A stretch of 64,000 nt of DNA from Flavobacteriales bacterium (GTDB lineage Bacteria > Bacteroidota > Bacteroidia > Flavobacteriales_F > PHOS-HE28). Below are positions 3,801 to 58,513 of the stretch, piece after piece. The stretch spans positions 200,948 through 264,947 of the forward strand of contig JADJVC010000001.1 of assembly GCA_016710685.1 (NCBI GenBank), read 5' to 3'. A program made the position numbers and the translations under genes. Below the pieces are notes generated by a model. The model saw only the letters and a list, made by a program, of their open reading frames with translations, was not told where the DNA came from and ran no database searches. How positions within the stretch are numbered: position 1 is the first letter of the stretch; each line of letters starts with the position of its first letter.

Positions 3801-5319
3801 CGACCCCGGCGATTACTACCTCACCGTAACGCACTATCCCAATTGCACCAGCACTAACGGGCCTAACACGGTGCTCAATTTCAGTTCGCCGTTCATTGAA
3901 GCATTGCCCACGGGTACTATTTGCCTCAACGGCACGGTGGACCTGCAAGTGGCGACCGGGCCGGGAAGTTCGGTGCAATGGCAAGCGCCACTTATGGGCA
4001 CTGCGTTCGTACAAACGGTGAGTGCGGCAGGAACTTACCAATGCACGGTTACCAGCTGTGGCATCGATTGGCCACTGAATTACACCGTGCAGGCCAGCGC
4101 TGTTTCCGCTGAATTGGACACGACGGCCTACCTGCTCTGCAATGGCGGACCGGTTACACTCACTGGGCCTGCCGGTGCGAACATTTACCAGTGGTTGCCA
4201 TCGGGAGGCTTCGGTCAATCCATCACGTTGGATACACCCGGTGACGTGCAGCTCGTGGTGTTGGACGCATTCGGTTGCGCGGACACTTCCGCGGTGATAT
4301 CCGTGAACCCGTTCGCATTTCCCCAACCAGCAATGGCCATTGGCGACACGGTTTGCGCCGGTGCGTTGGCAACGGTGACGGCCACCGGTTCGGGCAATCT
4401 TTCTTGGTTTGCCGCTGCGGATACTTCCTCGTTGTTAGGCAATGGGAACAGTTGGGCCTTCACCGCAACGGCGAGCGATACGGTTTACCTGTTGCAGGTG
4501 GAAGCCGGTTGTACGGGCCAATTCATTCCGATAAATGTGGAGGTAGCTCCGGTCTCCCCGGCACCGAACATCACCGGTCCCGTTGCGTATTGCGTAGGTG
4601 ATACGGTGTTGTTGATCGCCGAAGCGGATGGCTTGCCCCTGGCATGGAATACACCAGCAGGAGCCGTGCAAGGCGCTGTGGTGGGTCCGATGCCTGCTCA
4701 ACTTTCAAATGCAGGGTCTTATACCTGTTGGGCTGTAATAACAGGATGTGGAAGTGACACGGCCAACGTAGTTGTGGGCGTTTCCGATGTCCCCGAAATG
4801 CCGGTGATCATCGGCGATACATTGCTTTGTGAAGGCGATTCGTTGCTCCTGGTCGCGGATGTATCAGGAGGAAATGTGCAATGGCAAACTCCTGCCGGAC
4901 AAGTGGACGGCACGAGCGTAATGCTCGGCAGCGTGCTGATAACGGACCAAGGCGAATACCAATGCACGGCCTTTGCGGGTGTATGCTCCAGTGCCACCGC
5001 CATGGTTCTGGTAGTGGTTGATCCCTGCACCACGGACACCACCGACCTCATCATTCCCAACATCTTCAGCCCGAACGGCGATGGTGTGAACGACGACTTT
5101 TACATCGGCGGGGACGGTATCCGGCATGTCGATCTTCAAGTGTACAACCGCTGGGGCCAGCTCATGGCGGAGGTGAGCGGAAGGGCTGCGCGTTGGGATG
5201 GCAGGGCCGCCGGTTCCGGCGTTTTGTGCAGCGAAGGCGTGTACTTCTGGGTTGCGCAAGCCGTGCGGAACACGGGAGAGGGGATCCCGCTTTCGGGTTA
5301 TGTGCAGTTGGTGCGGTGA
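898..5319 (+). CDS. Giant T9SS cargo / adhesin-like protein with N-terminal signal peptide, SBBP beta-propeller repeats, multiple Ig-like domains and a gliding-motility-associated C-terminal domain (CHU_C, T9SS type B CTD)
   Basis: Long ORF 499..5319. The in-frame ATG at 898 precedes the hydrophobic signal LLTCLFLSASATALNAQ; an earlier start would overlap clpB. C-terminus IPNIFSPNGDGVNDDFYI...YNRWGQLM matches the CHU_C/type B CTD consensus. Confidence 0.75.
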   Translation: MNGQLVPCFHALQCTRLFPLKGLLTCLFLSASATALNAQHWLTKASSPQAEHIADLVLDRAGNSYVIGDFSLSASFLQGPDNLGSVTSSGGRDVLVAKLAPDGTLLWAKRAGGPALDVGLKLVLGNAGLGISGLFTGTADLFGGTHSAQGGSTDFFVALLDTANGNAQWVRTAGAPGYTDTPSGITMRPNGDLVVAGKFKGDAVFGTDTLHSAFDPWTNTLGFDVFIASWAADGTYQWVRQGSGPHDDQAVDLTSGPDGMLYITGQFSDTITFDVQHPNISLNSMFVVKYDGDGQEQWFRKCGGSTFNQVSDMLFSSEGDLLITGDVAYTMYWVDNIATPIPNLEPHAYFILRVDTAGMLLNATTMGSASNLHAASLAEQADSVVVYGEFECSFTGLQNAYNANGLFMATGLKDLFIAKHAAMDFSFVEGQQFGGSGAKRAGAIAWDMNGLLFTGSFEDQLFLPGSFPMWGDPVTSFPYCSYIGVNAGLTYCGDPNYGYFAWAISYGLSDGFLSRGYEESRQPYDWWNRQNTPPCDRTDRGSEVCISEQYQACTDTVEACGFAVLTVHAPFPTQNDFCGFRGQTPTVGPYAYQGWGGLPPGSTFNVYTTGWVGVTINTTNYCTSYNDSVYVLIQPEPTAMVSDSSGIFTDDPLPIQYQACVPMVFWATQFAPTDQVFWTLGSDTTWSDTMHMANSGYYRLHLLSAAGCENVYGMNFTLVPNSVVPDITGVTVQFALGDTMVYCGTGCIGGALTLTWYVNGLQTYLPSGMNLQYQFQQSCTSSNPSPQSTQYVNAPLNWTAPNTGPGWYTVGVQCTLDALPCDTNTFSFNFLDSVYVLAGTPPQFTTSPVVRCAGDTVVVALPCSNCDSVAWTGPGIVWTSATGDSLLVDQDGYYQFQAFSSAFGNVCQSSSYVTVLAPPPPPIYMQPYYGVICPNDSVLLYTPTHATNYEWTGPGFTVLPANDSIWTDDPGDYYLTVTHYPNCTSTNGPNTVLNFSSPFIEALPTGTICLNGTVDLQVATGPGSSVQWQAPLMGTAFVQTVSAAGTYQCTVTSCGIDWPLNYTVQASAVSAELDTTAYLLCNGGPVTLTGPAGANIYQWLPSGGFGQSITLDTPGDVQLVVLDAFGCADTSAVISVNPFAFPQPAMAIGDTVCAGALATVTATGSGNLSWFAAADTSSLLGNGNSWAFTATASDTVYLLQVEAGCTGQFIPINVEVAPVSPAPNITGPVAYCVGDTVLLIAEADGLPLAWNTPAGAVQGAVVGPMPAQLSNAGSYTCWAVITGCGSDTANVVVGVSDVPEMPVIIGDTLLCEGDSLLLVADVSGGNVQWQTPAGQVDGTSVMLGSVLITDQGEYQCTAFAGVCSSATAMVLVVVDPCTTDTTDLIIPNIFSPNGDGVNDDFYIGGDGIRHVDLQVYNRWGQLMAEVSGRAARWDGRAAGSGVLCSEGVYFWVAQAVRNTGEGIPLSGYVQLVR

Positions 5320-5443
5320 AGACGGCGTGGGTGAAGGGATGTGGAAGTGGTCTGACTTTATCTCAACCTGCGAGGCCTTTCCAACGGACCGCACCCCAAC
5401 CCTTAGTTTTGAAACCGCCCGTAGCAGCGGGCAAGAGGAGCAC

Positions 5444-7174
5444 ATGACCATACGCGCAGCACCCGCAATTGAACGAGCAGCACTGGCCTTTATGGCCGTT
5501 GGCTTGCTCGCGGGAGCTTTGCTTTTGCCGCTTCGAGCTTTTCCGGCGGAAAAGGAAAACGCGAACACCACTGGCGAAGCCCGCCTCGCGCAGGCCAAAG
5601 CCCTTTTGCCCAGCGATCCGGATTCCGCATTGGTGCTCGCGTTACAGGCCGGGAAGCAGCTGGGGGAGTTTCCCTCCAAATGGCAAAAGGCCAGTGCGTT
5701 AATGGTTTTGGGCGATGCATACGCGGCAACGGGGGAAATGCCGGATGCCTTGGCCGCCTACCAGCGGGCGCAATTGGTGATGGAGGAGGTGCCGGAGGAT
5801 CAAGTTGCCGACACCTCGGTGATCCTTGCCCGCGCGGACCTTCAACTGAAAATTGGCACCTTGTATTTTACCCTGCGCGATTTTGAGAAGAGCGTTGCGC
5901 GGTTGACCGATGGCTTGAGCATGCTCGATGCGGCGCGCGACGTGTTGACCCTGGAGCAATTGAACAGTAGAAAGGTCCGGGCATTCAACAACATTGCCGG
6001 CGGCTATATCCAGCAGAAGGAATACGCGTTAGCGCTGCCTTATTTCCAACAGGCCGTGGCGATGAACCGGGCGTTGAACAATCCGCGTTATGAGAGCGCA
6101 CTGAACAACAACATCGGTATTTGCTACATGGAGACGGGCCAGCACGACCTGGCCGATCAGTATTTCCTGCGGGCACTTGCGGTGCGCAAGCAAACCGATG
6201 ACGTGCGCGGACAAGCACAAGTGCTGAACAGCATGGGCAAGAACCAGGCGCTCATGGGCCGGTTCAGCGCAGCACGCGTGCATTTCGAACAAGCGCTCGC
6301 GCTCGGCCGGTCGGCGGGCAGCTCCGCATCCATGGCCATCTCCTTGGAGTCGCTGGCCACCGCTTATGACACGCTGGGAGAGTACAAGGCCGCATTTGAT
6401 GCCTTCCGTGAGTACAAGGCGATCAACGATAGCCTTTACAGCTCCGAGGCGCGGACGAACATTGCCCGGCTGGAGGACCGGTTCCGCCGCGACAAGGAAA
6501 AGAAGGTTTTCGAGCTGGAAGCCCAGCGCAAGGATGCCGTGAACGCGCGCCAACGCATGTTGAACATCGCGCTCGCCGTGGCGATGTTCCTGCTGTTGCT
6601 TACCGCCTATCTGCTGTTCAAGGCCATGCGGTCCCGTGTGCGGACCAGCGCGCTTCAACAGGAAAAGCTCCGGCTGGAAAGTGAAAAACTCCGGTTGGAA
6701 AGCGAAAAACTGGAAACGGAAAAATCCGCGCTAACGGAAAGCTTGGCGTTCAAAGAGCGCGAGCTCACCGCCAATGCCTTGTTCCTGCTGAAGAAGAATG
6801 AACTTATCGAACACATCGTGGAACGGCTCCTCAAGGCCAAGTCCACCTTCCGGCAGGAGAACCAAAAGATCGTGCAGGACATCATCCACGAGTTGCAAGC
6901 GAGCCGGGATGAACACAATTGGGATGAGTTCGAAGCGCATTTCACGCGGGTCCACACCACCTTTTACCAAACCTTGCAGGAGCAGTTCCCTTCGCTTACG
7001 CCCAACGAGCGGAAGCTGTGCGCTTTCCTCCGGCTGAACATGAGCACCAAGGACATTTCGGCCATCACGCACCAGAGCCTGAACAGCATTACCGTGGCCC
7101 GGTCGCGCTTGCGGAAAAAGCTGCAGATCGATGGCGAGGATGTGCATTTGATCGACTTTTTGCAGTCCATTTGA
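5444..7174 (+). CDS. TPR-repeat / coiled-coil / single-TM / LuxR-type HTH transcriptional regulator (Bacteroidota family)
   Basis: TPR-like repeats; TM segment IALAVAMFLLLLTAYLLF; coiled coil LRLESEKLRLESEKLETEK; C-terminal GerE/LuxR HTH (ERKLCAFLRLNMSTKDISAITHQSLNSITVARSRLRKKL). Start chosen at MTIRAAP, downstream of the adhesin stop. Confidence 0.8.
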   Translation: MTIRAAPAIERAALAFMAVGLLAGALLLPLRAFPAEKENANTTGEARLAQAKALLPSDPDSALVLALQAGKQLGEFPSKWQKASALMVLGDAYAATGEMPDALAAYQRAQLVMEEVPEDQVADTSVILARADLQLKIGTLYFTLRDFEKSVARLTDGLSMLDAARDVLTLEQLNSRKVRAFNNIAGGYIQQKEYALALPYFQQAVAMNRALNNPRYESALNNNIGICYMETGQHDLADQYFLRALAVRKQTDDVRGQAQVLNSMGKNQALMGRFSAARVHFEQALALGRSAGSSASMAISLESLATAYDTLGEYKAAFDAFREYKAINDSLYSSEARTNIARLEDRFRRDKEKKVFELEAQRKDAVNARQRMLNIALAVAMFLLLLTAYLLFKAMRSRVRTSALQQEKLRLESEKLRLESEKLETEKSALTESLAFKERELTANALFLLKKNELIEHIVERLLKAKSTFRQENQKIVQDIIHELQASRDEHNWDEFEAHFTRVHTTFYQTLQEQFPSLTPNERKLCAFLRLNMSTKDISAITHQSLNSITVARSRLRKKLQIDGEDVHLIDFLQSI

Positions 7175-9166: not shown

Positions 9167-11221
9167 ATGAAAGCATTTTACCTCCCCTTCGCCTTTGCCG
9201 CGCTTGCCGCAGTAACGGCCTCCGCGCAGTACAGCGCGACCATCACCATTACGGACTTCAGTACCGGTTTGCCGGTGGAGAATGCGACTGTTGCGCGCGG
9301 TGGCACTTCCATGACCACGAATGCAGCCGGTCAAGCCATTTTCCCCGGATTGCCGAACAACACGTACAGCTTTTCCGTGACCGCCACATGCTACTATCCC
9401 GGTGCCGGAATGATCACGATCGCTGGTGCCAATGCCGCGACATCCCTGGGACTGGATCCCATGGCCACCAACAACCTGTTCTTCTTCATCGGCGACCCGA
9501 TGGCGATCACGAGTGCATTCGTTGAAGTGACCAACGGAGGCAACTACTACGCGAGCTTCACGACGTTCGACACCTTCGGCGGCGAAATGCTGGCGGATGT
9601 GCCCTTCGGCGAAATGAGCTATACGATCACTACGCCCTGCTACGAAACGGTGACCGGCACAGTAACGGTTGATTGCAACAACGGCGACGGCATCGCGGTT
9701 TTTGAGAATCCGGGACCGGCCACCACTAACAACCTGTTCTTCTTCATCGGCGACCCGATGGCGATCACAGGCGCATTTGTTGAAGTGACCAACGGAGGCA
9801 ACTACTACGCGAGCTTCACGACATTCGACACCTTCGGCGGCGAAATGCTGGCGGACGTTCCCTTCGGCGAAATGAGCTATACGATCACGACGCCGTGCTA
9901 CGAAACGGTGACCGGCACAGTAACGGTTGATTGCAATAACGGCGACGGCATCGCGGTTTTTGAGAACCCGGCCCCAGCCACCACCAACAACCTGTTCTTC
10001 TTCATCGGCGACCCGATGGCGATCACGGGTGCATTCGTTGAAGTGACCAACGGTGGCAACTACTACGCGAGCTTCACGACATTCGACACCTTCGGCGGCG
10101 AAATGCTGGCGGACGTTCCCTTCGGCGAAATGAGCTATACGATCACCACACCGTGCTACGAAACAGTGACCGGCACAGTAACGGTTGATTGCAACAACGG
10201 CGACGGCATCGCGGTTTTTGAGAACCCGGCCCCGGCCACCACCAACAATCTCTTCTTCTATATCGGCGATCCGCTGGCGATCATCGGTGCATTCGTTGAA
10301 GTGACCAACGGTGGCAACTACTACGCGAGTTTCACGACGTTCGACACCTTCGGCGGCGAAATGCTGGCGGACGTGCCCTTCGGTGAAATGTCCTACACCA
10401 TCACCACGCCGTGCTTTGAAACGGTCACCGGCACGGTGATGGTTGATTGCAACAACGGCGACGGTATCTTGGTGGCAGCCGATCCAGGACCCGCAACCAT
10501 GAACAATTTGTTCTTCTACATCGGCGACCCGCTGGCGATTCTTGGTGCTACAGTGAATGTGACCGATGGCGGTAGCTACAATGAGAGCTTCGTGACGTTC
10601 GACACCTTCGGCGGCGAAATGCTGGCGGATGTGCCCTTCGGCGAGATGAGCTACATGATCAGCGCACCTTGCTACGAGACCGTGACCGGAACAGTGACGG
10701 TGGACTGCAACAATGGTGACGGCATTGCGATCTTCACCAATCCTGAACCGGTCGTCTTGGACGTTACAGTCGACGTGTCCGGGAATACCCTCATGGCCGC
10801 AGCCACCGGCATGGAGTACCAATGGGTGGATTGCGATAATGGCAATGCCCCGATCGATGGTGCCACGGCACAGAGTTTCCAGCCTACGGAAAATGGCAAC
10901 TATGCCGTGGTGATTTCCGACGGGGACTGCTCGCAAACCTCAACCTGCACAGCGGTGATCGTTACCGGGGTTGACCAGGTCGAAGGCCGGGATGCTTTCG
11001 CAGTTTACCCCAATCCGTTCGCTGACAGGCTCACTGTTCGAACCAATGGAAAGTTGGGTCCCGTCCGTGTGGAACTCCTCAGCTTGACCGGCCAAGTAAT
11101 CCTGGACGAGAGCGGCTCCGGCATGGAGATCAGCTTGCTGACTTCGGAGCTTCCTTCCGGTAGCTACTTGCTGCGTCTTTCGTCGGAAAGCGCCCGCACA
11201 ACGATCAGCGTGGTGAAGTAA
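9167..11221 (+). CDS. T9SS cargo protein containing five tandem 86-aa repeats and Por_Secre_tail CTD
   Basis: Signal peptide MKAFYLPFAFAALAAVTASAQ; repeat TNNLFFFIGDPMAIT...CNNGDGIAVFENPAPAT x5; C-terminal FAVYPNPFADRLTV...TISVVK CTD. Confidence 0.8.
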   Translation: MKAFYLPFAFAALAAVTASAQYSATITITDFSTGLPVENATVARGGTSMTTNAAGQAIFPGLPNNTYSFSVTATCYYPGAGMITIAGANAATSLGLDPMATNNLFFFIGDPMAITSAFVEVTNGGNYYASFTTFDTFGGEMLADVPFGEMSYTITTPCYETVTGTVTVDCNNGDGIAVFENPGPATTNNLFFFIGDPMAITGAFVEVTNGGNYYASFTTFDTFGGEMLADVPFGEMSYTITTPCYETVTGTVTVDCNNGDGIAVFENPAPATTNNLFFFIGDPMAITGAFVEVTNGGNYYASFTTFDTFGGEMLADVPFGEMSYTITTPCYETVTGTVTVDCNNGDGIAVFENPAPATTNNLFFYIGDPLAIIGAFVEVTNGGNYYASFTTFDTFGGEMLADVPFGEMSYTITTPCFETVTGTVMVDCNNGDGILVAADPGPATMNNLFFYIGDPLAILGATVNVTDGGSYNESFVTFDTFGGEMLADVPFGEMSYMISAPCYETVTGTVTVDCNNGDGIAIFTNPEPVVLDVTVDVSGNTLMAAATGMEYQWVDCDNGNAPIDGATAQSFQPTENGNYAVVISDGDCSQTSTCTAVIVTGVDQVEGRDAFAVYPNPFADRLTVRTNGKLGPVRVELLSLTGQVILDESGSGMEISLLTSELPSGSYLLRLSSESARTTISVVK
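9467..10757 (+). repeat. Five tandem 258-bp direct repeats inside the CDS; copies 1-3 nearly identical at DNA level, copies 4-5 diverged
   Basis: AACAACCTGTTCTTCTTCATCGGC recurs at 9470, 9728, 9986, 10244 and 10502, an exact 258-bp period. Confidence 0.9.
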
Positions 11222-16789: not shown

Positions 16790-17322
16790 CCCTGTGGGTG
16801 TTTAGGTTTCCTGCCAAACCTCCAGAAAGAAAAAGTGCTTGCGCGCACGCAGAAAAAGCGGGCACTTGGGCACGCCCCTTTCCTGGAAGCGATCATCCAA
16901 TGTGCCGGTGACAGGTCTTCTGGCTCGCCATTCTCCCCGGCGCCTTCCCATCCTCCTTGCGGTGGACAGTGGCTTCGTGCCGGTTCGTTTCAGGCTTACA
17001 GCTTCAGGAAAAGCCCGGGATTTGCACCCGGTTCCCTTTTAACCCCGCTTGTTACCACGGAGATCATCAGCGCGGCGAAGGTAGGTCGTTATGGAGATCT
17101 GGTGTGGTGAGAGAAATTTCTGGTACAGCGTATCGGGTACTGGGTACCGAGTACTGCCGACCGCCTGGCGACTGCATCTGCCAGCTGCAACTGCCGACTC
17201 TTCTCAGCGCCCCTGGCTGCCGAAGGCATGCTCTGCGTCAAAAAGCTCCGTGAACCTCTGTGCCTCCGTGCCTCTGTGGTGTAAAAAACACTCCATCGCT
17301 CCCCATTACCTTTGATCTCCCT

Positions 17323-28502: not shown

Positions 28503-28544
28503 TGCTGCGCAATTGTGATTTTTTCCTTAGGTTTTCAAATCGGA

Positions 28545-28990
28545 GACCAACTGTTTTTAGCCACAGATCCCGCCGATTACGCAGATGTTTCCCGCGTTGC
28601 GGGAAGGAACCCGCGGGTTCAGACTCCAATCGGCATTTATCTGTGTAATTCCGCTATTGCGGAACAGGTGCTGCGTAATCTGCGGCTCTACCTTTTGAGG
28701 CCGGCATTCACGTTGCGTCCGATACTTATCGGACCGTTGCGTACTTGGCTGCCGTAGGCATACCGTCGCGGTTCTCAACTTTGAGGCCGGTTTTCCGACC
28801 GCAGGTCGCGCTTAGCGGAATTCTTTGCGTGCTTTGCGTCCCCGGCTCCCGTAGGGCTGCATTAGGGGTATACCGATCAGAGGCCGGTATTCCCTTCCAC
28901 CGAAAAGCACCGCATCCAAAGGTTTCCCACTTCACCCTGTTGGTGAAACGTAGCGGTCTCCGGGTCGAAAAGCACACACGTTCCCGAATT
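28545..28990. repeat. Intergenic hairpin-rich repeat cluster (locus 1 of a dispersed family): CGCCGATTACGCAGAT + TTCCCGCGTTGCGGGAA core, TTCCGCTATTGCGGAA, three TGAGGCCGGnATTC units, CGACCGCAGGTCG and TCCGATACTTATCGGA hairpins
   Basis: Non-coding 497-bp gap. Its modules recur at 47995-48440 and 58280-58513 (e.g. TTTTTAGCCACAG..CGCCGATTACGC right after a stop codon in loci 1 and 2; identical TTTCCCGCGTTGCGGGAA hairpin in loci 1 and 3). Confidence 0.75.
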
Positions 28991-31441: not shown

Positions 31442-31606
31442 CTCCTTACGACGGGCTGATCTTCTGTTGATCACTGGCGCGAGCTTTAGGCGCTATAGGA
31501 AACTGCGCTCAACAAGCGCCGTCCTTTCGTGTCAACGTGCCTTTCCTGAATTTCATCCGCATCGGTACCGCACTATTACCCGACCTTTGCCGTTCAGCAA
31601 ACAACC

Positions 31607-32392: not shown

Positions 32393-32455
32393 CCTTTTAA
32401 GGTTTCCGAGCCTTGACTATAGCTTCTGGGATTTTCAGCAACACAGAAATTACTG

Positions 32456-32521
32456 ATTGCTAATTCCTAATTCCGGCTGCCGACACGGCTTGCGGAATTA
32501 GGAATTAGGAATTAGCAATTA
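32456..32521. terminator. Unusual AT-rich long hairpin (19-bp stem ATTGCTAATTCCTAATTCC ... GGAATTAGGAATTAGGAATTAGCAAT) between convergent genes, overlapping the peptidase stop codon; putative bidirectional terminator
   Basis: Inverted repeat with GGAATTA direct sub-repeats, followed by a T-run on the minus strand and located between the stops of 31607..32392(+) and 32519..34687(-). Confidence 0.6.
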
Positions 32522-34687: not shown

Positions 34688-34809
34688 GGGGTGGGGGATG
34701 AAGGGGTAAAAGTAGCTTGAACCGTTTGGGCCGAGCGATTCGGCTGGATTGGATCTGGCAGAAGGCCATTAGTCTCAATGGGCGTGTGGCAGGCAACGCG
34801 GTTGGTATT

Positions 34810-35104
34810 GGTGCGGTAGATTCGCTGCCCCGAGACAAAAAGCGGAACCCACAAGCCGATCAGTTGATGGACGCCCGAAAATACTACTTCTCTCTTCTCA
34901 CTTTTATCGGCTCCCTAACGCTGGGTTTTACGGCATCGGCGCAGTCACTGCAGGTCTTGGACGGCACAAGCCGCCAACCCGTGGTGGGCGCGGTGCTGAC
35001 TTCGACGGACCCGGCGCGGCAAGCCACTTCGGATAGCACCGGCAGGGTAGACCTCGCTGTTTTTCCGGACAGTGCTTGGGTGCGCGTTGAACACATCGCC
35101 TTCC
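34810..35104 (+). repeat. Copy A of a ~300-bp direct repeat: degenerate 3' end of a T9SS CTD gene + promoter/RBS/first ~80 codons of the TonB-dependent receptor at 37692 (5' gene fragment 34867..35154)
   Basis: ~85% identity over the first ~110 bp and ~98% over the last ~190 bp with 37638..37936. The fragment encodes MDARKYYFSLLTFIGSLTLGFTASAQSLQVLDGTSRQPVVGAVLTSTDPARQATSDSTGRVDLAVFPDSAWVRVEHIAF and then diverges exactly where REP1 begins. Confidence 0.8.
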
Positions 35105-35744
35105 CACTAGCGCGAGCGTCCGCGCTCGTGCTTTCTCTACGCCGAAGCATCTAACTTTCCACCATGAGTGAGAGCTACAAATTTGTTGAGGGTCATGCTC
35201 ACTTCATCACGTTTGCGGTTGTGGGCTGGGTGGATGTATTCACACGACGCGCATATCCCGAGTTCCTATTGGAGAACTTGGCTTTTTGTCGAAAAAACAA
35301 AGGGCTTCGCCTTTATGACCTTGTGATCATGCCGAACCATTTGCATTTGATCGCAGCGGCTGCAAATGGCAGTTTGGGAGAGATTATGCGTGACTTCAAG
35401 ACCTTCACGAGCAAGGAACTGGTGAAGCGTATCGCCGCGAACCCCCAAGAAAGCCGGAAGGAGTGGATGCTCCGTGTGTTCCGCGAGCATGGTGCGGCAA
35501 ATCCACACAACAAGGACCACCAATTTTGGCAACAGAGCAACCGTCCGATCATTCTGGACAAGCCGGAATTGTTTGACCAGCGTAGGCGCTACCTTCGCGA
35601 GAATCCGTTACGTGCAGGCTTGGTAAATGATGAGTCAGCGTACATGTGGAGCAGTGCCAACCCGCATTTGGAGTTTGAGTTTGATGAAGCATAGAAACCG
35701 AGGAGATGGAAAAAGAGGCACGAGCGTGGACGCTCGCGCCAGTG
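35105..35744 (+). mobile_element. REP–RAYT–REP unit: REP-associated tyrosine transposase gene flanked by inverted REP hairpins
   Basis: REP1 35105-35132 CACTAGCGCGAGCGTCCGCGCTCGTGCT. REP2 35717-35744 GGCACGAGCGTGGACGCTCGCGCCAGTG is the reverse complement with 27/30 identity. Each folds into a ~10-bp imperfect stem. Confidence 0.75.
35164..35694 (+). CDS. REP-associated tyrosine transposase (RAYT; IS200/IS605 Y1-transposase family)
   Basis: 176 aa; HuH motif MPNHLHLI; C-terminal catalytic-Tyr helix RRRYLRENPLRAGLV; typical RAYT length; flanked by inverted REPs. Confidence 0.8.
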   Translation: MSESYKFVEGHAHFITFAVVGWVDVFTRRAYPEFLLENLAFCRKNKGLRLYDLVIMPNHLHLIAAAANGSLGEIMRDFKTFTSKELVKRIAANPQESRKEWMLRVFREHGAANPHNKDHQFWQQSNRPIILDKPELFDQRRRYLRENPLRAGLVNDESAYMWSSANPHLEFEFDEA

Positions 35745-36747
35745 TGGGACCTAACATCAGTCGCTTTCGACCCTGCGGACGAAAACACGATTTACATCGG
35801 TTATGCCTCGTCCCAATTCCTTTCCGGTTACAATGAACCTTATGGAAACAGGATGGTGTTTAAAATGGACGTTTCCGATTTGTCTCAATACCCAGCAGGA
35901 GATCTCCCATTTGATTGTCCGGGAACTCCTTGCGCCGACATTACCATGAACCTGCCGAATACGTTTATTTCCATTGGGGCCATGATGGCGGAGCAGGGTA
36001 GCGACGGTGGTCTCTACGTGGCTACTGAAGCCGGCGTGTTCTTTACCGATAACAAACGCATCGCAGCATTCAATCCTGTGCAGCCGGAAGATGCCGATGA
36101 CATGTCAAACACCAGTGGATGGGTAAAATTGGGCGGCAGTTTGCCACATGTCGGTTCGCGAGGGATTGAGGCGAACTACCAAGTGAATCGTGTGCGCGTA
36201 GGTCTGTATGGTCGGGGTGTATGGGAACATCATCTGCATTGCCCAGATACTTTGCAATTCAATGAAGCAGGGACATATGGAGCCGACAGGTACTTGGAGG
36301 CTATGCAAAATATCACTTCGGAAGCGATAGTTCCTACGGGACTCGATCTGAAGTATCGTGCTGGAGAGGAAGTCCGCCTTACACCCGGTTTTCATGCAGA
36401 ACCGGGTACACGCTTCCATGCCTTCATTCATCCTTGTGACGCACCCGGCAATAGCTTCCATCCGAAAGCGATGCAAGCTGGCGCACCGGAAGCTGAAATT
36501 GAAAACGAGTCTGTTTATGTGGGAATGGAACTTTACCCCAACCCCGCCAATGGGTCTTTCACAGTACGGGCCAATTTCATCTCGGAGAATGGAATAGCGA
36601 CCATTCGAGTATTTGGCCCTACAGGCAATTTGGCATTGTCATCGGTAATGCGTGGGCCGCAGCAGTTTATAGATTCCAGTGGCTTGCATGGCCTTTACAT
36701 GGTTGTGGTTGAATGTGCCGGTGTCCAACAGACCAGAAAAAATTATT
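35706..36747 (+). pseudogene. 5'-truncated T9SS cargo gene fragment (BNR/sortilin-like beta-propeller C-terminus + Por_Secre_tail CTD); no signal peptide, begins inside REP2
   Basis: ...GGLYVATEAGVFFTDNK..., then the CTD VYVGMELYPNPANGSFTVRANFISENGIATIRVF...LYMVVVE. The same frame continues without a stop into the next gene. Confidence 0.45.
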
Positions 36748-37647
36748 TTGCAATGAGAAAGTGGCTGTCACTCATCACCTTCTTTAGTATCAGTAGCGGT
36801 ATTTCTGCACAGTTCTACCCAGATTCCACAGGAACATGGTGCATCCGTGATTTGAATAATTCTACAGCATTAGATATAACCATGGAGATGAGAGTAGGTT
36901 ATGACACAATTATCAACGGGAATACCTATCAACTAATAGATGAATTTCACGGAGATGATAATTGGAGTGTACCTGAATATATTAAAACTTACTACGTTAG
37001 ATCAGATACTGCGGGAAATGGTTTTATCTACATTCCTGCTTTATCGGAAGAATACCTAACTGGAAATATTAATGTTAATGTTGGGGATACGATTGAAAAT
37101 TTATATATGGGGTTTTTAAGCAGCATTGCAATTGTTGATAGCGCAGTCATATTAACTAATGCGTCTGATACCGTGAGGCGCGTCTATGTTCGGCAACCAT
37201 GGATAGGCAATTCGTTTTCTTCAATTAAGTCATTTTGGCAATCTGGAATGGGTTGTTCATTTTGGACCATATATCAATTATGATGATTTTCAAGACTTGA
37301 CGTGTGTAATAGCCGACGGTCGATATACATTTTCATTAAGTATTCCAGGAAACCATGCCGATCAATTGCCAATTGTACCCTGCGAGTGTGTTGCAATTGC
37401 GACCAATGTGGAGGAAGGTATTAGCCGTGTACTCCCAAGTATCTTCCCCAACCCCTCAACCAGTACATTCACCATAAGGAATGCCTCGTGTTCAAACGAA
37501 ATAGCCGTATACACCACCACCGGCCACCGAGTATGGCAAGGCACCGGCAATACCATAGACCTAATCGCGCAGCCACCCGGCGTGTACACGGCGGTGGTGG
37601 CCACGGAGCGGGGTAGGCAGGCGGTGCGGTTAGTAGTGGTGCAGTAG
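36748..37647 (+). pseudogene. Mosaic T9SS cargo gene: low-GC (~35%) N-terminal module with signal peptide fused (across a frameshift near 37210-37285) to a GC-rich Por_Secre_tail CTD
   Basis: MRKWLSLITFFSISSGISAQ signal at 36748; AT-rich 36740-37420. Frame 0 stops at 37283, while frame +1 is open from 37207 and encodes ...SIFPNPSTSTFTIRNASCSNEIAVYTTTGHRVWQG...VRLVVVQ*. Confidence 0.45.
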
Positions 37648-37936
37648 ATTCGCTCCCCCGACACAAAACGCGGAACCCACAAGCCGATCAGTTGATGGAC
37701 GCCCGAAAATACTACCACGCATTTCTCACTTTCATCAGCTCCCTTGCGCTGGGTTTTACGGCTTCGGCGCAGTCACTGCAGGTCTTGGACGGCACAAGCC
37801 GCCAACCCGTGGTGGGCGCGGTGCTGACTTCGACGGACCCGGCGCGGCAAGCCACTTCGGATAGCTCCGGCAGGGTAGACCTCGCTGTTTTTCCGGACAG
37901 TGCTTGGGTGCGCGTTGAACACATCGCCTTTGAACC
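37638..37936 (+). repeat. Copy B of the ~300-bp direct repeat (authentic promoter and 5' end of the TonB-dependent receptor)
   Basis: See copy A. Confidence 0.8.
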
Positions 37937-40130
37937 TTTGCGGATCCGTACGTCGGCCTTGCGAAAGCTCGGCGGTCCGCTTATGCTCATGCCGCGCACT
38001 ACGGAACTGGATGCCTTCGTGTTTTCCGCCAGCCGCTTCAAGGAAGCCCGCCGGGATGTACCCGAGCAGATCGACGTGCTTGCCCGCAAGGAGATCGCCT
38101 TCGATGCGCCGCAAAGCACCGGCGACCTGCTGCAGAACAGTGGTGCGCTCTTCGTGCAGAAAAGCCAGATGGGCGGCGGAAGTCCCGTGATCCGTGGCTT
38201 CGAGGCCAGCCGTGTGCTGTTGGTGGTGGACGGCGTGCGCATGAACAACGCCATCTACCGCGCCGGCCATTTGCAGGACATCATGACGGTGGACCCGAAT
38301 GCCTTGGAACGCATCGAGGTGATCAGCGGCCCGGCCTCCGTGGTCTACGGCAGCGATGCCTTGGGCGGCGTGGTACACCTGATGACACGCAGCGCGCCCT
38401 TCGCCGACAGCGCGGGGACGCACCTGTTCCACGGCGGCGCATTTACGCGCTACAGCTCGGCCAACAACGAACGCACGGCCCATGCCGATGTGAGCTTGAG
38501 CAGCCACAAACTTTCGAGCTTCACCAGCATCACAGCCAGCGATTTCGGGGACCTGCGCCAAGGGAGCCAACGCCTTGCAGCCTATCCGGATTTCGGGAAG
38601 AAGCCGTTCACGGTGGACCGCATCAACGGCACGGACGTTGCCGTTGTGAACCCGGACCCGGATGTGCAGACCGGCACCGGCTATCAACAGTTGGACGTGT
38701 TGGAAAAACTGCGTTTCCGTAGTGGCGCGCACACCGTGCACCAGCTCAATCTGCAACTGAGCACCAGCAGCGATGTGCCGCGCTACGACCGGAGTTCTAT
38801 TTACTCCACGGACAGTGCGGGGGCGATCGTTCCCGCCAGTGCTGAATGGTATTACGGTCCGCAGCAGCGCTTGCTGGCGGCCTATACGTTGGAATTGGAA
38901 GGGCGCGGCTTCTATGATCAAAGCCACATCACCGCCAATGCGCAACGCGTGGTGCAAAGCCGCCACAACCGGAATTTTGGAAGCAGCACACGGAAAAACC
39001 GCAACGAGGAAGTCACCGTTTTCGGCCTCAATGCGGATTTTGAAAAGCGCTTCGCGAAACACGAATTGCGCTACGGCTTGGAGTTGACGCGCGATGCGGT
39101 GACCTCTACTGCGTTTGCAGAGGACATCGGAACGGGCGCCACTTCTTACCTCGGTTCGCGCTATCCGGGCACCAGCACCATGACGCATGCCGCGGTGTAC
39201 CTCACGCACACCGTGGAACTGAGCCGCAAATGGCTGCTGAGCGAAGGCGTTCGGCTTACCAATGTGGGCCTGCGCAGCACCTTCAGCGATGCGGCGGATT
39301 TCCAGTTCCTCAACGGCACGGTGGCGCAGGACAACACAGCGTTCAATTGGCGGGCAGGTGCGGTTTTTTCTCCGGAAAAATCGTGGCGCTTCACCGCGTT
39401 GGCGAGCACCGGCTTCCGCGCGCCCAACGTGGACGATCTCGGCAAGGTGTTCGACAGCACGCCCGGCCAAGTGATCGTGCCCAACCCTGATCTGCGTCCG
39501 GAACACACGCTGAACGTGGAAGCGGGCATCAACAAGATCTTCGCGGAACGCTACACCCTCGATCTGCAAGCCTTCCACACGTGGTACACCGATGCGCTGG
39601 TGGTGGCGCCGTTCACCGCGAACGGTCGCGACAGCCTCCTTTACGATGGCTCGCTGAGCCAAGTAACGGCATTGGTGAATGCGGGCAAGGCGACCATAAC
39701 CGGCGGCAGCGCGCAGTTGGCCGCCAAATTCACCACGAACTGGTCGCTCAGCAGCGGCATTATGTACACCTACGGGCGCGTTGAAACGGACAGCACACCC
39801 ACGCCGTTGGACCACGTGCCACCGGTTTACGGGCGAACAGCATTGGTATACTCCACAAAGAAGTTGCACGCCGAATTGTATGCCTTGTACAACGGCTGGA
39901 AACGGTTGGCCGACTACAGCGGAAGCGGCGAGGACAACTTGGCCAGCGCCACGCCGGACGGAATGCCAGCTTGGTGGACACTAAGCGTACGTAGCGAGTA
40001 TTCTTTTTCGCAGACCTTTTCGGTGCAGGCCGGCGTGGAGAATATCCTTGACCGCAACTACCGGGTTTTTGCCAGTGGCGTTAGCGCTCCTGGTCGGAAT
40101 GTGATGGTGGCGTTGCGGGTGGATTGGTAA
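37692..40130 (+). CDS. TonB-dependent receptor (N-terminal carboxypeptidase-like regulatory domain, plug, 22-strand barrel)
   Basis: Signal peptide FLTFISSLALGFTASAQ; plug motifs IEVISGPASVVYGSDALGGVVHL; C-terminal ...NVMVALRVDW. Confidence 0.85.
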   Translation: MMDARKYYHAFLTFISSLALGFTASAQSLQVLDGTSRQPVVGAVLTSTDPARQATSDSSGRVDLAVFPDSAWVRVEHIAFEPLRIRTSALRKLGGPLMLMPRTTELDAFVFSASRFKEARRDVPEQIDVLARKEIAFDAPQSTGDLLQNSGALFVQKSQMGGGSPVIRGFEASRVLLVVDGVRMNNAIYRAGHLQDIMTVDPNALERIEVISGPASVVYGSDALGGVVHLMTRSAPFADSAGTHLFHGGAFTRYSSANNERTAHADVSLSSHKLSSFTSITASDFGDLRQGSQRLAAYPDFGKKPFTVDRINGTDVAVVNPDPDVQTGTGYQQLDVLEKLRFRSGAHTVHQLNLQLSTSSDVPRYDRSSIYSTDSAGAIVPASAEWYYGPQQRLLAAYTLELEGRGFYDQSHITANAQRVVQSRHNRNFGSSTRKNRNEEVTVFGLNADFEKRFAKHELRYGLELTRDAVTSTAFAEDIGTGATSYLGSRYPGTSTMTHAAVYLTHTVELSRKWLLSEGVRLTNVGLRSTFSDAADFQFLNGTVAQDNTAFNWRAGAVFSPEKSWRFTALASTGFRAPNVDDLGKVFDSTPGQVIVPNPDLRPEHTLNVEAGINKIFAERYTLDLQAFHTWYTDALVVAPFTANGRDSLLYDGSLSQVTALVNAGKATITGGSAQLAAKFTTNWSLSSGIMYTYGRVETDSTPTPLDHVPPVYGRTALVYSTKKLHAELYALYNGWKRLADYSGSGEDNLASATPDGMPAWWTLSVRSEYSFSQTFSVQAGVENILDRNYRVFASGVSAPGRNVMVALRVDW

Positions 40131-47942: not shown

Positions 47943-47994
47943 TCGTATCCTCGCCCACAAATCGGACCGCCGCAAGGCGTCGTCCTGATCGGTG

Positions 47995-48440
47995 ATCCAT
48001 TTTTTAGCCACAGTTTTCGCCGATTACGCCGATGTTGCATTGCGGGGCGCGGGCGCGTTGGAAGCACATTGCCTACGGCAAAAAAAACCTGTGCAATCCT
48101 GATATGGTGGGACAGGTTCTGTGGACCTTTTTTCACGGCCACGATTCTTGTTTTGAGCCGCCGATTTCGCCGATTACGCCGATGTTGCATTGCGGGGCGC
48201 GGTCGAGTTGCAAACGCATTGCCTACGGCGAAAAATATGTGCAATCCCGCTCTGGCGGGACAGGTTCTGTGGCTCCCTCATTGAGGTCGGCATTCCGACC
48301 GAAGGTCGCATCTGTGTATATCCGAGGGTTTTTCATTGAGGCCGGTATTCATCTGTGTAATCCGTGTAATCTGTGGCTCTTCAATTAGTGCTCGCATTCC
48401 GTCCGACACGTATAGGACCGAAGCATCTATGGCATCTGTG
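47995..48440. repeat. Intergenic hairpin-repeat cluster (locus 2 of the dispersed family) including two tandem ~145-bp copies
   Basis: CGCCGATTACGCCGATGTTGCATTGCGGGGCGCGG...CATTGCCTACGGC.AAAAA...TGTGCAATCC...GGACAGGTTCTGTGG occurs twice (approx. 48020-48137 and 48162-48285). TGAGGTCGGCATTCCGACCGAAGGTCGC and TGAGGCCGGTATTC units match locus 1. Confidence 0.75.
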
Positions 48441-51087: not shown

Positions 51088-51429
51088 CTACTTCAAGAAC
51101 GCACCATCCACCACCAGCAGCTTTACTGCATTCACGGTGCGCGAGCGGTGTTGGCTCAACCCATCGGAAACCGCGTAGGAGGATCCTGCCTTCATCACAG
51201 TGGTGGATCCATCTTTCAATTCATTGATGAGTTCGCCTTCAAGCACAAAGACCAAGTGGCCAAGTTCGCACCAGTGGTCCGCGAGGTAGTTCGCACTGTA
51301 CTCGACCATCCGGATACGCAAGTCGCCAAGTCGCTGGATCTGCATGGTGGCCGTGCCCGAAGTGCCGTTTACAACAGTGACGGGCACTTGCGCCCATTCG
51401 GTGATCTGGAAGGGGATGTGGAGAGGCAT
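51088..51429 (-). CDS. DHCW-motif cupin fold protein
   Basis: 113 aa; contains the literal DHWCEL motif; MPLHIPFQITEWAQVPVTVV... matches the family. Confidence 0.75.
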   Translation of the reverse strand: MPLHIPFQITEWAQVPVTVVNGTSGTATMQIQRLGDLRIRMVEYSANYLADHWCELGHLVFVLEGELINELKDGSTTVMKAGSSYAVSDGLSQHRSRTVNAVKLLVVDGAFLK

Positions 51430-51871
51430 GGTACGTCGAAGGTAGCTTTACGTGGCAGTCCGAAGACTGCTTGAAGCGATCTTGCCTTGATCGACTGAGC
51501 AGCCCACCACTCGCCCCGGCCTGTTTCAGCAGGAACTCACTTTATTGTTGGGCCAGACTGGCGGGAGGGCGGGGTCCGCGAGGTAGTTCGCACTGTACTC
51601 GACCATACGGATGCGTAGGTCGCCGAGCTGCTGGATCCTCATAGTGGCGGTGCCCGAAGTGTCGTTTACAATGGTGATGGGCACATGATCCCATTCGGTA
51701 ATATGGAAGGGGATGTGTAGAGGCATGGTACGTCGAAGGTAGCTTTACGTGGCAGTCTGAAGACTGCTTAAGCGATCTTGCCATGATCGACTGAGCAGCC
51801 CACCAGTCGCCCCGGCCTGTTTTCAGCAGGAACTCACTTTATTGTTGGGCCGGGAAGACTGGCGGGAGGGA
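51278..51871. repeat. Tandem ~297-bp duplication (51278-51574 and 51575-~51871) covering the cupin 5' coding region + leader, creating a truncated second copy
   Basis: GTCCGCGAGGTAGTTCGCACTGTACTCGACCAT... aligns at ~90% identity with a 297-bp offset; each copy ends in AGACTGGCGGGAGGG. Confidence 0.85.
51526..51726 (-). pseudogene. Truncated duplicate of the DHCW cupin gene (N-terminal ~52 aa, then unrelated tail)
   Basis: MPLHIPFHITEWDHVPITIVNDTSGTATMRIQQLGDLRIRMVEYSANYLAD then diverges (PALPPVWPNNKVSSC*). Confidence 0.55.
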
Positions 51872-51917
51872 GGGAAGACTGGAGGGAGGGGTGGGAAGAC
51901 TGGAGGGAGGGGTGGGG
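51852..51917. repeat. G-rich minisatellite (GGGAAGACTGGAGGGAGGGGT)x3, potential G-quadruplex former, at the edge of the tandem duplication
   Basis: gggaagactggcgggagggagggaagactggagggaggggtgggaagactggagggaggggtgggg. Confidence 0.8.
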
Positions 51918-52147
51918 ATTACCCAATCTCCCGCAAGTCTTCCCGGCTAACCAAGAATTGCGCTCCAACACAGACAGCCGGGGCGACTTGTGGGTTATGA
52001 AATTACTTGCATCCATGCTTTGCTCGTGAAGTCTTCGGACTTCACACAGAAACCGTTCAATACTTTACCAATTTCAGCAACCTAAGTTTCCGTCTAACGG
52101 CTGGCAATTAACGGAGAAAAAGCAAGTCCCTTGCTCATCCGCACCTC

Positions 52148-58279: not shown

Positions 58280-58513
58280 GGCGTGACTCGGCGGAGACAG
58301 AATACGGAGATTCCCCAGAAGAGGCCGCAGATTTCGCCGATTTCGCCGATTTCGCCGATGGCTGCCATCGGCGGTAGTTGCCGGGCGGGCAGCTTTCCCG
58401 CAACGCGGGAAAAAATCTGCGTAATCGGCGCAATCTGAGGCTATCCCAAATGAGGACGGTCGCGTCAACGGCATTCCATTTTCTGATCGTCTGATCATCT
58501 GATCGTCTGATCC
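58280..58513. repeat. Intergenic hairpin-repeat cluster (locus 3 of the dispersed family) with (GATTTCGCCG)x3 and (TCTGATCR)x4 micro-tandem repeats
   Basis: The reverse complement contains CGCCGATTACGCAGATTTTTTCCCGCGTTGCGGGAAAG, the same core as locus 1. GCAGATTTCGCCGATTTCGCCGATTTCGCCGAT lies at 58328-58360 and TCTGATCGTCTGATCATCTGATCGTCTGATCC at 58481-58512. Confidence 0.75.

Follow-up and report, generated by a model that had tools for sequence, protein, structure and literature searches.

The window, that is, the whole 64-kb stretch of DNA that was analysed, contains one RAYT (TnpAREP) gene, located at 35164–35694 on the forward strand and encoding a protein of 176 aa of the HUH-Y1 single-strand DNA endonuclease/transferase family, and the gene is enclosed by two short hairpins in inverted orientation. 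As had been predicted from the letters alone, the ORF carries both the HuH motif, in MPNHLHLI (H59, H61), and the catalytic tyrosine, Y143, in RRRYLRENP; W122-Q123 is a further motif of the protein, and the ORF contains RRRYLRENPLRAGLV. In HMM searches, the protein was matched by the Pfam model Y1_Tnp (26.3 bits, cut-off 23) and passed the NCBIfam model NF047646 (REP_Tyr_transpos) narrowly, with 82.6 bits against a cut-off of 80, that is, 2.6 bits clear; with the IS200 model NF033573 it scored 20.4 bits, far under the cut-off of 55. The catalytic residues are kept on alignment: among 26 homologues of 43–89% identity, H59, W122, Y143, N147 and P148 never vary, and H61 is shared by 25 of the 26. 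The Y motif reads YLRENP in the window protein, and the family consensus in the alignment is YIHxNP, the form that more distant homologues show.

When the single sequence was searched against the PDB, nothing was found beyond a match of E~0.8 to ISDra2 TnpA, and the profile built from the 26-homologue alignment was needed to reach the best solved relative, E. coli TnpAREP (4ER8, E=2.4e-6), with which the HuH and Y motifs align; ISDra2 TnpA came behind it by profile (E=0.026). The AlphaFold2 model of the protein (pLDDT 92.9) gave the same order in Foldseek, with 4ER8_A, a RAYT bound to a REP, as the top match (TM 0.61/0.65) and IS200/IS605 transposases next. Compared with orthologues at 82–89% identity, the gene has a dN/dS of 0.03–0.07 at a dS of 1.4–2.0; that is to say, the RAYT protein is under strong purifying selection. 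In an upstream alignment of six independent loci, a conserved TA(A/C)CTTT box, TAACTTTC in the window (35152–35159, forward strand), lies 5–12 nt upstream of the ATG. It resembles the Bacteroidetes −7 promoter consensus, TAnnTTTG, and could possibly be a −7 element of this type.

The left REP (35103–35132, forward strand) begins with a 5′ extension, CCCACT (35103–35108), which is followed by the hairpin AGCGCGAGCG/TCCG/CGCTCGTGCT, with the stem halves at 35109–35118 and 35123–35132 and the loop at 35119–35122. The right REP (35717–35748) is read on the reverse strand and consists of a 5′ extension, CCCACACT (35748–35741), and the hairpin GGCGCGAGCG/TCCA/CGCTCGTGCC (35740–35717), after which comes TCTTTTTCC. 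Both hairpins in the window have the make-up CT[AG]G + CGCGAGCG-TCCN-CGCTCGTG. The inverted-repeat arms (35105–35131 and 35718–35744) are 27 nt each, 93% complementary and 586 nt apart, so that the 27 matches in 30 counted originally were about right. On folding as ssDNA, the left arm forms a 10-bp stem with the 4-nt loop TCCG (−11.6 kcal/mol, z −2.1) and the right arm a 10-bp stem with the 4-nt loop TCCA (−11.8 kcal/mol, z −3.7), in agreement with the stems and loops predicted at first. At stem position 3, a G.T wobble is conserved, and it becomes an A/C mismatch when read from the complementary strand. About 31 nt separate the left hairpin from the ATG, and 22 nt separate the stop codon from the right hairpin. 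With up to 3 mismatches allowed, the 22-nt core occurs in the 64 kb at the two flanking sites only, against 0.00 expected from 100 shuffles.

The borders of the unit could be placed by comparison. On the left, the homology to the second copy of the TonB-dependent receptor sequence in the window and to the contig of another strain type (L001) stops at 35102; on the right, conservation across six independent loci ends exactly after CCAGTGTGGG. When these six loci are aligned, similarity begins just before the left hairpin, and the flanks beyond the unit are not conserved. Since conservation across independent loci stops at the outer edges of the hairpins, the unit is taken as 35103–35748, slightly bigger than the 35105–35744 reported earlier and inclusive of the 5′ extensions.

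Hairpins and gene in related genomes

The REP(+)–RAYT–REP(−) layout is found again around homologues of 89% (L131, L146–148), 82% (L150) and 72% identity (L149, L134/L144), and also around those of 57% (L156), 51% (Adhaeribacter, L153) and 47% identity (Pontibacter mucosus, L029). Inverted REP flanks are thus reproduced at no fewer than 8 independent homologous loci, each in a different genomic context; beside a 41% homologue in Fluviicola (L097), one flanking REP was observed, at the contig end. Among 22 distinct hairpins the apex GCG-TCCN-CGC never changes, and the outer stem shows compensatory changes, such as CTTCAAGCG/CGCTTGAAG in L154 and GAGCGAGCG/CGCTCGCTC in L156. The same holds between the two REPs of the window, where A in one and G in the other are matched by T and C on the opposite arm. 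In the covariation test, 97.7% of cells were paired, a percentage inflated because the hairpins had been pre-filtered to those with 5 or all 6 of the outer pairs; 6 of the 10 pairs had changed on both sides, none of 500 shuffles scored as high, and slid controls were 22–60% paired. Because synonymous sites are saturated between these lineages, a hairpin that has been kept indicates selection on the hairpin itself. Taken together, the comparison of sequences argues firmly that the hairpins are the cognate REPs of the RAYT and not a coincidence.

In addition, one genome per species was scanned for GCGCGAGCGTCCNCGCTCG, and at least 120 loci were found against a rough chance estimate of about 17. 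Among the matches listed, three host groups can be distinguished, each with its own 5′ tag: GT[AG]G in Terriglobia/Acidobacteriota, ATG together with a longer shared 3′ part in Pontibacter and other Hymenobacteraceae, and CTN in Flavobacteriales MAGs. For most of the matches listed, no RAYT was seen within 8 kb; a good number are arranged as close inverted doublets. Inverted doublets with a spacing of 40–90 nt are present both in relatives and in other phyla (L011, L018, L026, L062, L083, L113, L114, L121, L136, L153); gene-free copies or doublets in relatives include L062, L136, L137 and the Pontibacter loci, and the Adhaeribacter RAYT is flanked by REPIN-like doublets. The MAG ACE_NR_BACT18, whose RAYT is 89% identical, has the doublet L062 about 250 kb from the RAYT; another of its contigs carries what is left of a decayed RAYT, accompanied by three REPs. 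Relatives thus do have dispersed REPs of this type, as the doublet and the remnant REPs of ACE_NR_BACT18 indicate. As a Terriglobia RAYT cognate to the shared hairpin, the one RAYT-like ORF located close to such a REP among the matches listed, in L122, was considered and rejected: it is of a different type, has an in-frame REP insertion and has a hairpin of its own.

Surroundings of the unit and rearrangements at its edge

The identical protein occurs on at least 22 contigs from many metagenomes and in two NCBI MAGs, always at the same locus, with a peptidase S9 gene and a TonB-dependent receptor gene as neighbours on all of them. Within the source species, the unit keeps to a single locus, between these two genes. 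In relatives with a RAYT of 72–89% identity, the unit lies at other loci. An empty site was sought through the flanking proteins and was not found; the peptidase S9 search gave one contig of 3.3 kb, and for the 1606-aa protein at the left end there was no entry. L136 was also considered as an orthologous empty counterpart to the filled site and was set aside, as only about 190 nt of it are homologous to the window and no comparison is possible.

A duplication of the 5′ end of the receptor gene encloses the unit and the cargo segment to its right. A direct repeat of 315 bp, with a spacing of 2828 and 93–94% identity, has its left copy at 34788–35102 (forward strand), truncated and abutting the left REP, and its right copy at 37616–37930 (forward strand), continuous with the intact TonB-dependent receptor ORF (37692–40130, forward strand; Plug and TonB_dep_Rec_b-barrel domains). 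The repeat comprises the last codons of a gene with a T9SS tail, an intergenic region and the start of the receptor (~80 codons). The duplication was examined as a possible assembly artefact, and this was rejected, for it is present in independent NCBI, ENA and JGI assemblies with strain-specific differences.

Between the right REP and the right repeat copy lies a strain-variable cargo segment (35749–37446, forward strand) of lower GC with genes of T9SS-sorted proteins, and its ORFs (35706–37283 and 37297–37647) match Por_Secre_tail and GCX_COOH. GC is 0.37–0.52 over 35600–37400 against 0.58–0.64 on both sides, and the original description of the unit as the left edge of a lower-GC segment is thereby upheld and extended, the segment being also strain-variable. 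In a second strain type (L001–L006, L009, L010), the cargo position is occupied by unrelated T9SS genes: 35749–37446 of the window and 10747–12213 of L001 have no homology, whereas both flanks are 98–99% identical. The replacement begins directly past the REP edge, at 35748|35749. In strains of the L001 type, moreover, the receptor fragment is 63 nt longer and is followed by an extra tandem REP upstream, and in most of their contigs (L002 and L006 being without it) the RAYT 3′ end and REP are duplicated in tandem over 161 bp. To the right of the unit thus begins a block of genes for T9SS-secreted proteins that varies among strains, and the position of the unit at its edge hints at REPtrons as possible markers of recombination hot spots in environmental Flavobacteriales.

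Local tandem duplications have also arisen at independent RAYT loci of the clade, namely 425 bp in L146, 149–150 bp in L132 and the whole unit in L149; in L154, which is more distantly related, 172-bp units of the RAYT 3′ end and the REPs have been amplified to about 7 copies. In L131, a 47-nt RAYT fragment is inserted, and a direct duplication of 420–433 bp of host DNA (the 3′ end of Omp85) brackets the unit, so that direct duplications of host DNA of 315–433 bp bracket it in two unrelated contexts, the window and L131. Four of these independent duplications or inserted fragments (161 bp in L001, the 47-nt RAYT fragment in L131, 425 bp in L146, 149 bp in L132) have one end at the 5′ outer REP edge, just outside CCC(A/T)AC(A/T)CT[AG]G, and the same edge position is that of the host|REP junction 35102|35103 and of the REP|cargo junction 35748|35749 in the window. 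At the RAYT-internal ends of the tandem duplications, no convincing shared motif was found, each junction merely ending in C. A metagenome contig of 2780 nt (L142), whose ends overlap by 78 nt, can be read as a circle made up of RAYT, cargo and one repeat copy; it was not accepted as an excised circle, since an assembly-graph cycle through two repeats explains it equally well.

The RAYT subclass to which these clade genes would belong is, to our knowledge, biochemically uncharacterised. From the recurrent breakpoints at the REP edge and the long host duplications, a cleavage position open to testing and a route of relocation can be proposed. It has been reported that HUH-Y1 enzymes cut a few nt 5′ or 3′ of hairpins, with the 5′ foot helping the choice of site (PMC8266576), and on that ground the rearrangement scars may mark the in vivo cleavage site of the subclass. 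That they record in vivo cleavage and strand transfer by the RAYT, at a constant position on the 5′ outer border of the REP unit, is suggested by the shared breakpoints, and is in our judgement a rather doubtful proposition; alternatively, the hairpins may stall replication and promote template switching. If true, the role of the RAYT would go beyond the upkeep of REPINs: it would cause local duplications, exchange cassettes and relocate itself.

Explanations of the unit and its place among known systems

The profile, fold, comparative and covariation evidence agree with what the original prediction proposed, a RAYT flanked by inverted cognate REPs in a genome of the Bacteroidota. In our reading, 35103–35748 is very probably a REPtron, that is, a single-copy, vertically kept RAYT of subclass 2.6 (group 5) together with its two inverted cognate REPs. 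The prediction had further spoken of REPIN substrates, and this part was not supported: in the 64-kb window and about 4 kb of extra source-strain sequence, looser searches included, no further hairpin copy was found besides the two flanking ones, and the window holds no inverted doublet of the REPIN type. The extra ~4 kb, new sequence reached through the MurC-like protein at the right end, likewise contains no REP. A metagenome scan for the source-specific form, made in a collection without large recent JGI contigs, gave 14 stretches, of which those of the source species (L135, L138, L142) are all the RAYT locus, the others being REPs of other Flavobacteriales.

It is accordingly possible, if less likely than not, that the REPtron is an orphan, consisting of the RAYT and its two flanking hairpins only, with a dispersed REP/REPIN population that was never seeded or has decayed; the gene would then be kept for a host function unrelated to the spread of REPs, or would be a recent arrival. 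The absence of further copies in the 64 kb plus ~4 kb and the restriction of the source-species metagenome matches to the RAYT locus speak for it, as do the at least three loci that ACE_NR_BACT18 has among the matches listed and the modest counts of flanking 16-mers of group 5 RAYTs, for which about 31 occurrences genome-wide (per replicon) have been given (Bertels et al. 2017, PMC5581495). On the other hand, zero extra copies in ~64 kb bounds the density only to roughly 48 per Mb or less (95%), so that tens per genome are possible, and the metagenome collection is one without large source contigs. Strong purifying selection on both protein and hairpins also suggests that the pair is in use. 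In addition, an intergenic 13-mer at 31471–31483 (forward strand), CACTGGCGCGAGC, is identical to the 5′ tag and first stem half of the right REP; with a rough chance expectation of ~0.06 for any 13-mer of either REP, it gives a weak hint that a decayed half-REP may remain there.

Another explanation, which we consider very improbable, is that of an autonomous insertion sequence of the IS200/IS605 type, the hairpins being the subterminal ends of a 645-bp mobile unit and not REPs. It would account for the sharp ends of the conserved unit and for the whole-unit tandem copy in L149, and the presence of genes of 72–89% identity in quite different contexts does imply that the whole unit has moved over evolutionary time. 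However, the protein fails the IS200 model and passes the RAYT model, its closest relative in structure and sequence is TnpAREP and not an IS transposase, and the hairpins of the window are mutually inverted, whereas the ends of IS200/IS605 elements carry hairpins on the same strand (PMC8266576). Moreover, the gene stays at one locus with no second copy on any source-species contig, and gene-free hairpins occur in relatives. The least credible explanation, in which a small gene is simply bordered by common transcription terminators or insulators, the hairpins being similar through local duplication only, draws on the T-rich tract that follows each of them 3′ on its own strand and on a terminator scan that picks up both, but as the sole explanation it is already contradicted by the recurrence of a 19–22-nt core beside RAYT homologues in many lineages and by the dispersed copies (at least 120 loci against ~17 by chance), while the covarying stem with its invariant apex fits recognition by a protein rather than simple termination; a side role as terminators is possible.

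For the REPtron with cognate REPs, a working scheme can be drawn by analogy with the TnpAREP of E. coli, S. maltophilia and Marinomonas and with the TnpA of IS200/IS605. On single-stranded DNA, as exposed for instance at replication forks, the RAYT would recognise the folded hairpin and bind it, reading the 5′ foot together with the conserved apex. Strand specificity would come from the G.T wobble at stem position 3, since its counterpart on the opposite strand, A/C, cannot pair. Y143 would then cut close by while a metal ion is held by the HuH histidines; a 5′-phosphotyrosine link would form, and the strands would be rejoined. The enzymology is known for other RAYT groups (PMC8266576); activity of the window enzyme, its position of cutting and its mobilisation of REPs in the source genome are inferences.

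Compared with IS200/IS605 elements such as IS608 and ISDra2, the window unit shares the enzyme superfamily and the logic of ssDNA hairpin recognition, and these transposases are its second-tier fold matches; it differs in that the protein fails the IS200 model, the hairpins are inverted and not co-oriented, the locus is single and fixed, and there is no tnpB. The E. coli TnpAREP system (group 2, REP/BIME, 4ER8) is closer, with a shared HUH-Y1 fold that gives the best profile and fold match, inverted REPs flanking the gene, an imperfect palindrome and a conserved 5′ tetranucleotide ending in [AG]G, although its sequence identity to the window protein is only ~15%. The foot is GTAG in E. coli and CT[AG]G in the window, where it is partly drawn into the stem, its A/G pairing with the covarying T/C, and the imperfection of the palindrome is a G.T wobble in the window REP rather than the bulge of E. 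coli. The E. coli genome contains hundreds of REPs, whereas none was found past the flanks in the ~68 kb of source sequence.

The closest likeness is to subclass 2.6 (Bertels group 5), which has been described as "mostly present in Bacteroidetes", with a mean length of 179 aa and the motifs NH[LIV]H, WQ and YIH[QN]NP (Quentin et al. 2018, PMC6006769). Its members Aequorivita sublithincola AFL81591.1 and Fluviicola taffensis AEA44309 belong to the same host phylum as the window RAYT, which at 176 aa is of similar length and has the NH[LIV]H and WQ motifs. The REP catalogued in Table S1 for AesuA01 (AFL81591.1) of A. sublithincola, GCTAG + CGCGAGCG + TCC + CGCTCGTG, is written GCTAGCGCGAGCGTCCCGCTCGTG (PMC6006769), and the window REP, CTAGCGCGAGCGTCCGCGCTCGTG, matches it apart from the length of the loop. 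The foot is GCTAG/GCTGG in Table S1 and CTAG/CTGG in the window, the stem halves are shared, and an apparently low gene copy number and hairpin copies elsewhere in related genomes are further points of agreement; the differences are the Y motif (YLRENP in the window against YIH[QN]NP) and the loop (4 nt against 3). The assignment to subclass 2.6 rests mainly on the type of REP, the HuH and WQ motifs, the length and the host, the Y motif departing from it. Because the subclass is found mostly in Bacteroidetes and an essentially identical REP has been catalogued there, the rarity in Bacteroidota that the original prediction stressed was overstated: the gene–hairpin pair adds one more, unexceptional example to a Bacteroidetes subclass already described, and leaves the present picture as it was. 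The core GCGCGAGCG-TCCN-CGCTCGTGC has been kept across Flavobacteriales, Hymenobacteraceae and Terriglobia with the lineage-specific tags CT[AG]G, ATG and GT[AG]G, respectively, and, since the GTAG-contacting residues are reported not to be conserved in subclass 2.6 (Quentin et al., PMC6006769), this lineage-tagged core is useful material on how the enzymes of the subclass read their substrate.

Direct duplications of host DNA around the RAYT units

In the window, the RAYT unit and its T9SS cargo are enclosed by two copies of a 315-bp direct repeat (34788–35102 and 37616–37930), which duplicates the 5′ end of a TonB-dependent receptor gene. The two copies are 93–94% identical, and their mismatches lie mostly within the first ~130 nt. 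In the strains of the L001 type, the second strain type of the source species, the copies of the receptor repeat are 378 nt long and 97.6% identical to one another. A direct duplication of 420–433 bp (9456–9874 and 10705–11137) also encloses the RAYT unit of L131 (GCA_023957375.1, JAMLHB010000001.1), whose RAYT protein is 89% identical to that of the window. The host DNA duplicated there is the 3′ end of an Omp85 gene with the adjoining intergenic region, so this is a separate case with no relation to that of the window.

REP copies and cargo genes at the RAYT loci

Two tandem REPs are located upstream of the RAYT gene in the second strain type (L001, L003–L005, L009 and L010), and downstream of it there is a 161-bp tandem duplication composed of the RAYT 3′ end and a REP; in L001, these features occupy 9902–9970 and 10425–10747. 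Both upstream REPs are also present in L002 and L006, without the 161-bp duplication. In L154, a locus from a 4.6-Mb genome whose RAYT is 45% identical to that of the window, a 172-bp unit made up of the RAYT 3′ end and two REPs is repeated downstream of the RAYT in about seven tandem copies (4437–5638), and its REPs have a compensatory stem, CTTCAAGCG-TCCA-CGCTTGAAG. In the window itself, the intergenic 13-mer CACTGGCGCGAGC (31471–31483) is identical to the tag and first half-stem of the right REP, and may be a decayed REP.

The 2780-nt contig L142 (Ga0075163_10148328) has a 78-nt direct overlap between its ends, and its order is RAYT 3′ end, REP, cargo, receptor 5′ repeat, REP, REP and RAYT 5′ part. 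It would stem from a cycle in the assembly graph or from a circle that was excised.

As for the cargo, window positions 35706–37647 read as a 525-aa ORF, with a Por_Secre_tail match in its middle (aa 276–345), and a 116-aa ORF. The counterpart in L007 (9858–11797) contains two genes of 349 and 297 aa, both bearing a T9SS tail, as does that in L008; both are MAG contigs 99.7% identical to the window. Since the ORF layouts differ, there are frameshifting indels in the cargo ORFs of the window or in those of the two MAGs. Genes of the DUF5122/Por_Secre_tail type (T9SS-secreted) repeatedly adjoin RAYT homologues of the clade (L150 2393–5502, L001 10981–12414 and L149 323–1760).

Other repeats and RNA elements in the window

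A dispersed family of ~130 nt has four copies (28540–28700, 47990–48140, 48140–48290 and 58300–58460, the last on the minus strand) with the core TAGCCACAGATTTCGCCGATTACGCAGATGTT...GCGTTGCGGG; Rfam has no match for this family, and its sequence shows no relation to the REP of the RAYT. Five copies of a 258-bp tandem unit (9465–10796, 72–95% identical) are probably a repeated domain within a large surface-protein gene. A tandem duplication of ~297 bp (51276–51870, 84–96% identical) has an internal 30-nt inverted repeat at 51839–51957. Directly downstream of a peptidase S9 gene lies a near-perfect palindrome with 35-nt arms (32448–32520), which is built from AATTAGGAATTAGG repeats and kept in L001, L002, L007 and L008. 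A cobalamin riboswitch (RF00174, 110.8 bits) is located at 16893–17083 on the minus strand.

The REP core in other taxa

Among the matches listed from a genome-contig scan (L011–L130), a 19-nt REP core is common to Terriglobia/Acidobacteriota, Pontibacter and Adhaeribacter, and Flavobacteriales, with the 5′ tags GTAG/GTGG, ATG and CTN, respectively; in Pontibacter and Adhaeribacter, the REP sits in a longer composite element with a GGCCTCTGGCC hairpin. No cognate RAYT for the Terriglobia REPs was identified among these listed matches. In the Terriglobia MAG locus L122 (2–907), there is a RAYT-like ORF with the HuH motif MPEHIHLL and YIHRNPV, and this ORF has an insertion in frame that reads ...SRKTGETWGTP...; the hairpin CCCAGGTCTCGCCGGTTTTGCGAGACCTGGG upstream of this ORF matches the insertion. 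According to Quentin et al. (PMC6006769), REP insertions in frame are the hallmark of the TnpAREP subclass 2.4.
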